Source of the DNA: Escherichia phage ECO95 1-6-1
Reading direction: 5' to 3' (one strand)
Sequence record: OR845563.1
Length of the DNA: 2,081 nucleotides
The notes below the pieces were generated by a model. It was not told the origin of the DNA, made no database searches, and saw only the letters and a list, made by a program, of their open reading frames with translations. Shown here piece after piece: positions 452 to 907 of this stretch. Position 1 is the first letter of the stretch; every line of letters begins with the position of its first letter. A program made the position numbers and the translations under genes.

Positions 452-541
452 AACTGTTACCTCACTTAACGGTTTGGTGAGACGCCTCGGTACTGCTCGA
501 ACAGTCCGGGGCGTTGTTTTTTTAGATAGCACCGTGTTAAG

Positions 542-584
542 GTGTGTACCTATTAAAGAAAACAGTACGCCAATAGGTACGCAC
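542..584. promoter_or_regulatory. 13-bp imperfect inverted repeat (12/13), GTGTGTACCTATT (542..554) / AATAGGTACGCAC (572..584), 17-nt spacer; candidate operator or RNA stem-loop
   Basis: Seen directly. The right arm ends at the nucleotide before the RHH ATG (585) and lies in the spacer of the putative minus-strand promoter; the left arm lies around the predicted minus-strand transcription start. GTAC-containing motifs recur in the spacer (AGTACGCC 563..570). Confidence 0.45.
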
Positions 585-591
585 ATGTCAA
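562..591 (-). promoter_or_regulatory. Putative sigma70 promoter reading leftward toward the Icd-like gene: -35 TTGACA (591..586), 18-nt spacer, -10 TACTGT (567..562)
   Basis: Perfect consensus -35 hexamer and a TAnnnT-type -10 at 18-nt spacing on the minus strand, about 110 nt upstream of the Icd-like start. Sequence pattern only; the -10 is weak. Confidence 0.3.
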
Positions 592-779
592 CACCCATTA
601 AACGAGATCGGCAACCAAAAGGAGCGGGGAAAGCACCAGCGTTCCAGATTCGAATCCCCCCCGAACTTAAAGAGCAATTTGAAAAAGAAGCCCAAGCAGA
701 GAGTGTTAGCCTCGCAAATTGGATGAAGGAATTAGGCCGGGAAGCCCTCCGAAAGAAAGGTATTGAGCCAAAAGGCTGA
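585..779 (+). CDS. Small ribbon-helix-helix (Arc/Mnt/CopG-like) DNA-binding protein candidate, 64 aa
   Basis: First ATG of the ORF at 585 with a weak SD (AGGT 575..578); stop TGA 777..779. Translation: [64 protein letters not shown]. This reads as a basic N-terminal arm, a beta-strand with alternating hydrophobics (FQIRIP), helix A ([14 protein letters not shown]), an S-x-S turn, and helix B ([13 protein letters not shown]), which is the RHH fold signature. The opposite-strand frame here is low-complexity junk. A plus-oriented intrinsic terminator follows at 877..907. The 441..584 extension depends on a TTG start with no RBS and is not supported. Confidence 0.55.
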
Positions 780-792
780 ATAAAATCAGCGG

Positions 793-820
793 GCGCAGAA
801 TTGCGCTGGCTCATTCTTTG
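793..820 (+). terminator. Short GC hairpin GCGCA-GAAT-TGCGC (793..806) followed by a moderately T-rich stretch, just downstream of the RHH stop; weak terminator or protein-binding palindrome
   Basis: Seen directly: 5-bp perfect stem with a 4-nt loop, followed by GGCTCATTCTTTG. Weak by itself. Confidence 0.25.
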
Positions 821-876
821 ACCACCAGCATTAACCCTGGTATGCTTAATCTGTTTCGGTTTTTCGTAGTGACATT

Positions 877-907
877 GGCAGCTCTGCAAAGCTGCCTTTG
901 TTTTATT
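877..907 (+). terminator. Rho-independent terminator, plus-strand oriented: GGCAGC-TCTGCAAA-GCTGCC stem-loop then TTTGTTTTATT
   Basis: 6-bp GC-rich stem (877..882 / 891..896), 8-nt loop, then a U-rich tract 897..907 on the plus strand. On the minus strand the stem is not followed by a U tract, so it is oriented to terminate rightward (RHH) transcripts. It sits between the convergent RHH and antirepressor genes; the antirepressor stop is at 905..903. Confidence 0.55.

Follow-up and report, generated by a model that had tools for sequence, protein, structure and literature searches.

The immI region of phage P22 combines Arc, Mnt, the antirepressor gene ant and the sar RNA, and its operator lies between or over the hexamers of closely spaced opposing promoters. 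Phage P1 likewise has an icd-type gene and a linked antirepressor gene in its immunity region, immI, with an RNA that controls translation of the former; this RNA, C4, arises by processing of the same transcript and has its sites of action downstream, and icd stands before ant. We describe here a locus that shares features with both, found in a 2,081-nucleotide stretch of Escherichia phage ECO95 1-6-1 (OR845563.1; this whole stretch is called the window below), in which a small gene for a ribbon-helix-helix (RHH) protein occupies the interval (452 to 907) between an Icd-like gene and an antirepressor gene. A third relevant system is the symE/SymR pair of Escherichia coli, in which SymR is a cis-antisense RNA of ~77 nt whose -10 element lies within the first codons of its target (Kawano, Aravind and Storz 2007; PMC1891008). 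A silent change in these codons of symE, from CATTCT to CACTCC, alters the symR -10 and abolishes SymR, and the same authors noted that some SymE genes stand beside RHH factors, the protein and RNA regulators being taken as alternatives (PMC1891008).

The window derives from a satellite of the phage-inducible chromosomal island (PICI) type. The founding paper on Gram-negative PICIs names AlpA as their activator, describes it as unclear whether they possess a global repressor and regards the contrast with Gram-positive PICIs as a "mystery" (PMC6092414), and the preprint on capsid-forming PICIs (cf-PICIs) leaves a repressor unmentioned. Because this literature names no repressor for Gram-negative PICIs, the module described here is a testable repressor candidate. 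With a probability of about 0.68, we take the interval to be the maintenance (immunity) node of a cf-PICI, made up of an Arc-like transcriptional lock and a SymR-like post-transcriptional lock; the RHH gene, its predicted operators and a predicted antisense RNA probably keep the division-inhibitor and replication genes of the satellite silent. Comparison of related loci reveals a conserved protein, a conserved putative leftward promoter (P_left), sites that co-vary with the protein and a predicted structured antisense RNA, and from these sequence comparisons we infer DNA binding by the protein, repression of P_left, the transcript ends and the block on translation of the Icd-like gene.

A conserved gene for an Arc-like RHH protein

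The open reading frame (ORF) at 585..779 on the plus strand is the ATG-started part of a longer frame (441..779) and encodes 64 amino acids, in which the preliminary description had recognised an RHH signature. The profile searches are consistent with that signature. PHROG 228, "Arc-like repressor", matched at E=4e-8, and when a profile of the family was compared with PDB sequences, the best solved structure was P22 Arc (E=0.0028, residues 12-59), with residues 19, 21 and 23 aligned to Gln9, Asn11 and Arg13 of Arc. The Pfam matches were borderline and consistently of the RHH type, comprising RHH_5 (E=5.5e-5, 23.3 bits; cut-off 26), the RHH part of HicB (21.1 bits; cut-off 21), Arc (E=0.0057, 16.9 bits; cut-off 20.4) and RHH_1 (15 bits; cut-off 20.5). 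The predicted beta-strand spans residues 19-25 (AFQIRIP), and the predicted helices span residues 26-38 and 43-57. In the AlphaFold model, two helices follow an extended N-terminal segment (predicted local distance difference test score, pLDDT, 69); the strand of RHH proteins forms only in the dimer, and this model is monomeric. A Foldseek search of the PDB returned Arc as the nine best matches (template modelling score to target 0.67-0.84), the top matches being almost all RHH proteins. The model and its matches together indicate a strand-helix-helix topology over ~45 residues; fold prediction thus upheld the two helices and the kinship to Arc but left the strand itself unformed.

For the comparative analysis, one genome was taken per species, which yielded 62 loci across Enterobacterales with 57 unique upstream sequences. 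A large protein database contained 36 clusters of homologs with 59-98% identity, nearly all of exactly 64 amino acids. The family is narrow, because an exhaustive profile search gave only 113 clusters at E<=0.001. Arg23 is invariant in the family, and the conserved residues are encoded by two to six different codons each, so synonymous sites are saturated and it is the protein that has been kept. Judged by profiles, predicted structure and conservation, the ORF at 585..779 is a real, conserved Arc-like RHH gene.

The codons of the DNA-binding strand stand between two homopolymers, G4A3 (624-630) and C7 (656-662), at window 624..662, and three variants of the protein (P0002, P0004 and P0008) carry compensated frameshifts exactly between these homopolymers, by which the strand is replaced. 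These frameshifts could be sequencing errors or natural on/off variation.

Relatives of the protein are named "HicB family antitoxin", and a recent satellite survey lists a "HicB" gene as an accessory toxin-antitoxin component. We consider it unlikely, however, that the 64-amino-acid protein is an antitoxin that neutralises an Icd-like or SymE-like toxin by protein contact, with the repeats upstream serving autoregulation only. The Pfam HicB score (21.1 bits against a cut-off of 21) would suit this explanation, but the protein is a bare RHH domain of only 64 residues, without the HicB N-terminal domain or a long toxin-binding tail, and no hicA gene was found nearby or anywhere in the 16-kb element. 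The partner genes do encode toxins or proteins like them (SymE, PF08845, in the majority of loci; Icd-like here), and RHH factors adjoining SymE genes have been noted as antitoxin-like (PMC1891008); the RHH gene is nevertheless divergent from the supposed toxin gene rather than co-transcribed with it, and the partner varies (Icd-like, SymE, a 175-amino-acid protein and others) while the operator-promoter geometry is fixed, so recognition at the level of DNA fits better than recognition at the level of protein. The recurrent labels "HicB antitoxin" and "hypothetical" for these proteins are annotation in need of correction.

The leftward promoter and two predicted operators

The -35 element of P_left, TTGACA (586..591, minus strand), falls within codons 1-3 of the RHH ORF and overlaps its start codon. 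The -10 element, TACTGT (562..567, minus strand), lies across an 18-nt spacer, and the predicted transcription start is at ~554. ATGTCAA, which reads TTGACAT on the other strand, is kept to 98-100% in the 57 unique upstream sequences, also where the gene starts with TTG or GTG, and the T, A and T of a TAnnnT motif 18 nt away are conserved to 74, 88 and 82%. The codon for Ser2 is TCA in all 56 of 56 sequences, with a third-position entropy of zero, as against 0.83-1.97 bits for the other conserved residues; because Ser2 is always TCA while the other conserved residues use two to six codons, the -35 hexamer is constrained at the nucleotide level. In Pasteurella phage Pmp8, whose homolog shares 38% protein identity, TTGACA likewise covers the start codon and is separated by 17 nt from TATAGT. 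A consensus promoter scan called neither of the two promoters at the repeat described below, and both rest on conservation; P_left was missed by the scanner because its -10 (TACTGT, 18-nt spacer) is weak.

The preliminary description had placed this promoter, with its -35 at 591..586, beside a 13-bp inverted repeat, one arm in the spacer and the other around the predicted start. The promoter agrees with the conservation given above, and the repeat is present (arms 542-554 and 572-584, 13 nt each, 12/13 or 92% complementary, 17 nt apart), at a position that is conserved in most of the 57 related loci. Taken by itself, the repeat is only modestly unusual, a comparable one having arisen in 4.5% of 200 dinucleotide shuffles. 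It retains its operator-like character but is better read as two self-contained 12-bp pseudo-palindromes, AGGT-N4-ACCT, than as one hairpin-type repeat, and the arrangement relative to the promoter holds for these two sites. The predicted right operator, O_R (AGGTACGCACAT, 575..586; from pattern search and conservation), fills the spacer between the P_left -35 and -10 and runs into the RHH start codon. The predicted left operator, O_L (AGGTGTGTACCT, 540..551; from pattern search, with a co-varying core), lies just past the start, at ~+4 to +15 of the leftward transcript. When the loci are aligned on the start codon, ATAGGT at -12..-7 is 86-98% conserved and is followed by a variable core; the TAGGT of O_R probably doubles as the Shine-Dalgarno sequence of the RHH gene.

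Both sites are found in 53 of the 57 loci, mostly 33-35 bp apart. Their inner 4 bp agree within a locus (mean mismatches 0.42) and differ between classes (2.96), and in both sites they track residues 19 and 21 of the protein, residue 21 being the equivalent of Arc Asn11. Seven specificity classes emerged, in which residues 19/21 and the inner 4 bp are, respectively, Pro/His and GTAC, Gln/Lys and GGCC, Leu or Met/Asn and ATAG, Ile/Ser and ATGG, Gln/Arg and GACC, Ala/Gln and ACAC or ACGC, and Thr/Gln and ACGT. This comparative evidence suggests that the DNA-facing residues of the strand read a symmetric or pseudo-symmetric operator. Several sites, AGGTGTACACCT and AGGTGGCCACCT among them, form perfect palindromes of 12 bp. 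Inside ant, a third match to the operator pattern (1004..1015) was treated as chance, and cooperative looping between the two operators was rejected, as their spacing varies (31-36 bp). E. coli 21AR0133 has a YlcI/YnfO gene, together with different upstream DNA, in place of the segment from ~465 to 770, and both flanks are identical; because repressor and sites are replaced together in otherwise identical elements, they move as one cassette.

That the repeat is no protein operator at all, but an RNA hairpin in a plus-strand read-through transcript that sequesters the RHH Shine-Dalgarno sequence, is in our view quite improbable. The orientation of the sites bears on this directly. Where the cores are asymmetric, the two copies are inverted in the window and in loci L004, L006 and L009 but direct in L005 and, through its outer half, in the large class; such a mixture is what a symmetric protein on self-contained sites predicts, whereas a hairpin predicts otherwise. 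Plus-strand 536-590 does fold as a 13-bp hairpin with TAGGT inside the stem (-17.2 kcal/mol, z=-4.3), but the largest class has direct repeats (AGGTGGCCTC twice) and, in ~40 loci, two constant U-U mismatches that are never compensated. Loci without a SymR terminator probably co-transcribe the RHH gene and the small RNA (sRNA) described below, which would place both arms in one RNA; in the window, however, the predicted rightward start lies inside the left arm. Finally, single sites are themselves palindromes, and their core tracks a residue of the beta-strand.

A predicted SymR-like antisense RNA

Each element proposed in the preliminary description survived comparative testing, but that description missed the RNA considered here as well as the unit at 818..907 treated below. 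On the plus strand, a -10 element (TAGACT, 433..438) is embedded in codons 5-7 of the Icd-like ORF, and its TAnnnT pattern keeps its position in 46 unique loci, whatever the overlapping protein. Its codons are homologous to those that hold the symR -10 of E. coli, the element defined there by mutation (PMC1891008). It would direct a cis-antisense RNA of ~78 nt (446..523, plus strand, both ends predicted), for which the evidence consists of its fold, covariation and matches of relatives to Rfam. Starting 3 nt inside the Icd-like ORF, this RNA covers the start codon (451..449) and the ribosome binding site, and it comprises a 5' AGCCAU, a first hairpin with an anti-Shine-Dalgarno loop (CCUCACU), a second hairpin (481-515) and a U-run (517-523). 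With its predicted ends, it has the SymR architecture, that is, a -10 within the first target codons, overlap with the Shine-Dalgarno sequence and start codon, 78 nt, two hairpins and a U-run.

The minimum free energy is -32.8 kcal/mol (z=-4.9), and in 34 of 34 loci the plus strand folds more stably than the minus strand (-34.3 vs -21.4 kcal/mol), a difference that stems from G-U pairs. Pairing in the outer stem of hairpin 2 reaches 94.9%, compared with ~50% in slid controls, and it shows 17 double-change cells against 2.2 in shuffles, a value reached by none of 500 shuffles. In three relatives (L011, L023 and L026), the Rfam SymR model (RF01809) matched over its full length at the matching place and strand, with 45.1, 30 and 26.5 bits, all below the gathering score of 61 bits. 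Rfam searches of the whole window and of 400..600 gave no meaningful family, with no match to C4, SymR or IsrK, and the link to SymR came only through these relatives. A covariance model that we built from 34 loci (R1) found the RNA in 11 further loci, among them the YlcI/YnfO elements and Pasteurella Pmp8 (42 bits). The SymR-like leader was present in 274 of 5,426 complete E. coli genomes, mostly at the starts of Icd-like genes, and was never annotated; a DNA search of E. coli genomes for the SymE-class SymR-like sequence found nothing.

The leader is conserved although the first leftward gene differs between loci, encoding an Icd-like protein, SymE (PF08845, 57 bits), a 175-amino-acid protein or others. 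All of these proteins start with MA(D/N)..S(T), and the plus-strand sequence of their codons spells the conserved -10, which is TAGAAT in the SymE loci and TAGACT in the window. Since no more than a few of the 62 loci gave a match when searched by tblastn with the Icd-like, Ant and AlpA proteins of the window, the module is not tied to these genes.

In seven loci (L011, L013, L018, L023, L025, L048 and L059, at ~4200-5500), the RHH/SymR-like module faces a true SymE toxin gene, and for L011, L013, L023 and L048 the island was seen to lie beside tRNA-Sec (selC). The RHH gene of these SymE-facing islands is followed on the same strand by variable defence-type cargo, including a TIR protein, DUF3644 with a restriction endonuclease-like domain, a calcineurin-like phosphoesterase with a winged helix-turn-helix protein, a Swt1-like HEPN protein and ParA-like proteins, so that the islands look like a cargo hotspot. 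On the E. coli plasmid pCUVET19-1426.1 (L070, 2100..2840), a SymR-like leader and a 59-amino-acid plus-strand gene lie upstream of a hypothetical gene, of a gene for a WYL regulator and of DUF1819/DUF1788 (BREX-type) genes; from this context, defence systems on plasmids may be gated by the cassette as well. In L068 (2200..2265), the repressor slot is taken by a small protein of a third kind: it has 59 residues, looks unrelated, gave no family hit and is accompanied by a different palindrome (TGTAATGTGTCATTACA), yet its start codon overlaps TTGACA (GTGTCAA).

Transcription of the RHH gene and the downstream unit

A tentative rightward promoter for the RHH gene lies at 514..543 (plus strand), with a -35 of TTGTTT (514..519), a TG at 535-536 and a -10 of TAAGGT (538..543); it is below the reach of the consensus scanner. 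Its extended -10 (535..543) overlaps O_L, which suggests autoregulation. Of the 42 loci of the Lys-21 (QFKMR) class, 13 have TGnTAnnnT at this position, as do 13 of the 15 other loci. The extended -10 goes together with a U-rich tail behind hairpin 2, which is present (6.4 T in 10 nt) in the 22 loci that have the element and absent (3.1 T in 10 nt) from the 32 that do not. No convincing RHH promoter was found in the SymE-facing class, which is the basis for the idea of co-transcription. There would then be two arrangements: separate transcription of the sRNA and the RHH mRNA, as proposed for the window, or read-through into the RHH gene from the SymR-like promoter.

The preliminary description had cited an intrinsic terminator at 877..907 (plus strand; stem 877..896 and a T-run) in support of rightward RHH transcription. 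The terminator is indeed present, but it is preceded by a strong promoter-like site of its own (818..846, plus strand; TTGACC, 17 nt, TATGCT, with an extended TG), so it is not simply the terminator of the RHH gene. The terminator alone is no proof of an RHH transcript; the conservation of the RHH gene does support one. The site at 818..846 is conserved in other islands, lies between the RHH stop codon and the terminator, and is the only site in the window to pass the consensus promoter scan. It would give a candidate small RNA of ~53 nt (853..907, plus strand) that ends in the terminator and is antisense to the 3' end and 3' untranslated region of ant. The block 816-906 is 83-89% conserved in other E. 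coli islands, with two compensatory changes in the stem, and it always stands directly 3' of the last gene of the alpA operon, be that alpA itself or an antA/B gene. The 816..907 unit contains the invariant GUAGUGACAUUGGC. In two examples, the 853..907 RNA appears to mimic the Shine-Dalgarno region of the Icd-like gene, which we mention as speculation; pairing of this RNA with the RHH start region was dropped as a candidate, since it involved only 6 bp. Just past the RHH stop codon is a GC-rich hairpin (784..815; minimum free energy -15.5 kcal/mol, z=-4.3) that is weakly terminator-like in both directions. Leftward terminator-like signals are weak and lie at 790..775, and the 877..896 hairpin, when read leftward, lacks a U-run.

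Pasteurella phage Pmp8 (L066, 4860..5380) is a 15-kb satellite that was deposited as a phage and carries the whole module at 38% protein identity, with a SymR-like RNA, two GGT-WWWW-ACC palindromes and TTGACA over the start codon. Its terminal hairpin unit resembles window 853..907 and stands in the same place.

It is very unlikely that the RHH protein regulates only its own strand (itself and the cargo genes behind it), with TTGACA being no working promoter and the Icd-like gene expressed by read-through from alpA and ant, because the strict ATGTCAA constraint with TAnnnT 18 nt away would be hard to explain and most module loci have kept the leftward promoter and leader without alpA or ant upstream, even though the variable defence-type genes of the selC islands do lie on the same strand 23-65 nt behind the RHH gene, the 877..896 hairpin could allow some leftward read-through and AlpA activates downstream genes in EcCICFT073 (PMC6092414).

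The element and its gene content

Apart from positions 1..85, the window shows 98% identity with a chromosomal island of E. coli ET670 that adjoins yhdJ. The first 85 positions consist of poly-C followed by the end of Illumina P7, a 10-nt index and a Nextera sequence (..CGAGAT TCGGCCTATC GTCTCGTGGGCTCGGAGATGTGTATtAGAGAC); they are a library or assembly artefact at the contig end and are non-genomic. Genuine sequence begins at ~86, inside a small leftward ORF.

The ET670 island encodes, in this order, an integrase, DUF6387, AlpA, a KilAC/AntA antirepressor and the small plus-strand gene, then the Icd-like protein, four small ORFs and a DUF927 primase-type protein, and lastly a major capsid protein, prohead protease, portal, head closure protein, head-tail connector and HNH protein. 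All of the island genes except two are leftward, the RHH ORF being one of the exceptions. A 15,995-bp circular copy in Klebsiella pneumoniae FDAARGOS_1323 (L065) encodes an RHH protein identical to that of the window and adds genes for the small and large terminase subunits (TerS and TerL), which gives the order int-alpA-ant-RHH-icd-primase-capsid-protease-portal-HNH-TerS-TerL. By the annotation of both copies, the element is an island of ~15 kb with int, alpA and a primase, and it has its own capsid, protease, portal, head-tail connectors, HNH and both terminases but no tail genes. Judged by this annotated gene set, the element is a cf-PICI, and the 15,995-bp "plasmid" is most likely its excised, circular form. 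In the RefSeq annotation of that copy (NZ_CP069874, 9159..9575), the Icd-like ORF is extended upstream so that it overlaps the RHH start; because the ATGGCT start is conserved in all loci, this start appears to be mis-called.

In the window, alpA, which encodes an AlpA-family regulator (1693..1977, minus strand; Pfam Phage_AlpA, E=2.3e-10), is followed by the antirepressor gene with AntA and KilAC domains (903..1682, minus strand; Pfam ANT, E=7e-26, and AntA, E=1e-23). The Icd-like gene (182..451, minus strand; 89 amino acids; NCBIfam phage_ICD_like, E=2.2e-17; PHROG 1743, E=1e-41) is the first of the leftward operon and is annotated as Icd-like in NZ_CP100930. The RHH gene is convergent with ant and divergent from the Icd-like gene, and this layout agrees with the earlier proposal that it faces the promoter feeding the latter. 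The Rfam int-alpA RNA motif (RF02996) was matched with 49.9 bits, above the gathering score, near the alpA region of two related islands (L003, 6828..6896, and L004, 5311..5378); it had no match in the window, whose end is ~100 nt upstream of alpA.

Proposed mechanism

In the mechanism that we propose, the 64-amino-acid Arc-like protein would be made from the plus strand and would bind the two AGGT-N4-ACCT operators as a dimer or higher oligomer. With O_R within the spacer of a sigma-70 P_left and O_L just past the predicted start, occupancy would block RNA polymerase and silence the Icd-like gene together with the tightly packed genes behind it, up to the DUF927 primase. The repressor would probably autoregulate through O_L, over its own extended -10. 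Leftward mRNA that escapes would be blocked or destabilised by the ~78-nt SymR-like RNA, transcribed from the -10 hidden in the Icd-like ORF, because this RNA is the full complement of the ribosome binding site and start codon. Candidates for opening the lock are AlpA-driven leftward transcription across the RHH gene and the adjacent antirepressor.

Several observations weigh against this interpretation and keep its probability at the level given above. The Pfam Arc and RHH_5 scores are under the curated cut-offs, and the AlphaFold model is a monomer of moderate confidence (pLDDT 69) with the beta-strand unformed. The -10 of P_left is weak and was not called by the scanner. The operator spacing of 31-36 bp has no fixed helical phase, which leaves looping unsupported, and the close kinship of the many Lys-class loci means that only about seven specificity classes are independent. 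Rfam SymR has no match in the window, and its matches in relatives are below the gathering score. Lastly, the "Icd-like" function comes from annotation alone, and PHROGs labels the same family a transcriptional repressor.

A broader idea, which we offer tentatively and regard as doubtful, is that the Arc-like protein and its interchangeable YlcI/YnfO-type and 59-amino-acid counterparts might prove to be the master repressor that has been missing for Gram-negative PICIs and cf-PICIs. They might define heteroimmune classes by the code between beta-strand and operator and work with the SymR-like RNA, the switch being flipped by helper-induced AlpA transcription or by the antirepressor; in selC islands and on plasmids, SymE toxins and possibly the defence cargo next to them might be gated by the same portable cassette. 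A conserved candidate lock of repressor, operators and antisense RNA directly upstream of a replication operon makes the question of a repressor experimentally approachable. The roughly seven matched specificities of protein and operator, which differ mainly in one strand residue and four base pairs, provide a natural series for the study and engineering of RHH recognition, and SymR-type antisense control would be extended from the chromosomal symE locus to Icd-like genes.

Comparison with known systems

The likeness to P22 immI that had been proposed at the outset holds for the fold and the regulatory logic but not for the gene arrangement. In both regions, a small repressor of the Arc fold accompanies an antirepressor gene (Arc being the best match among solved structures), the operator stands between promoter hexamers or over them, and a small antisense RNA is present or, here, predicted. 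However, the RHH gene of the window is convergent with ant and is not co-transcribed with it as in an arc-ant operon, the target promoter would drive the Icd-like/replication operon rather than ant, two separate 12-bp pseudo-palindromes take the place of one 21-bp Arc operator, no Mnt-like second repressor is present, and the match to Pfam Arc is below the cut-off. In P1 immI, as here, control by RNA concerns an icd-type gene that is linked to an antirepressor gene, but in the window the RNA would come from the opposite strand, ant lies upstream in a different unit and Rfam gave no C4 match.

Compared with symE/SymR, the predicted RNA likewise covers the Shine-Dalgarno sequence and start codon, control would act at both transcription and translation, and relatives of the module face true SymE genes and score with the Rfam SymR model. 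The differences are that the transcriptional repressor of symE in K-12 is LexA, with no adjacent RHH gene, whereas here an element-encoded Arc-like protein would take the role of LexA and the protected gene is Icd-like; that the RNA of the window is too diverged for the Rfam model; and that an RHH factor and an sRNA, previously taken as alternatives, are here combined.

Within the PICIs, the Stl/Rpr repressors of Gram-positive members (SaPIs) are likewise divergent from an excision/replication operon, with the operators in between (PMC6092414). Stl is nonetheless an unrelated and much larger protein whose repression ends when it binds proteins of the helper phage, induction of Gram-negative PICIs goes through AlpA, and the role of the RHH protein as an island repressor is putative. 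YlcI/YnfO proteins (NF041551) occupy the identical slot in sister elements, are weakly similar over the strand and first helix (E=6e-4) and include one so-named slot protein that scores 25.9 bits with HicB; the window protein, by contrast, reaches only 19.8 bits with the YlcI/YnfO model (cut-off 30), with which the slot protein of NZ_CM132251 scores 60.6, and the upstream operator DNA is different. The design as a whole is classical, with a divergent repressor, operators over the target promoter and, in addition, a type I-style antisense RNA.

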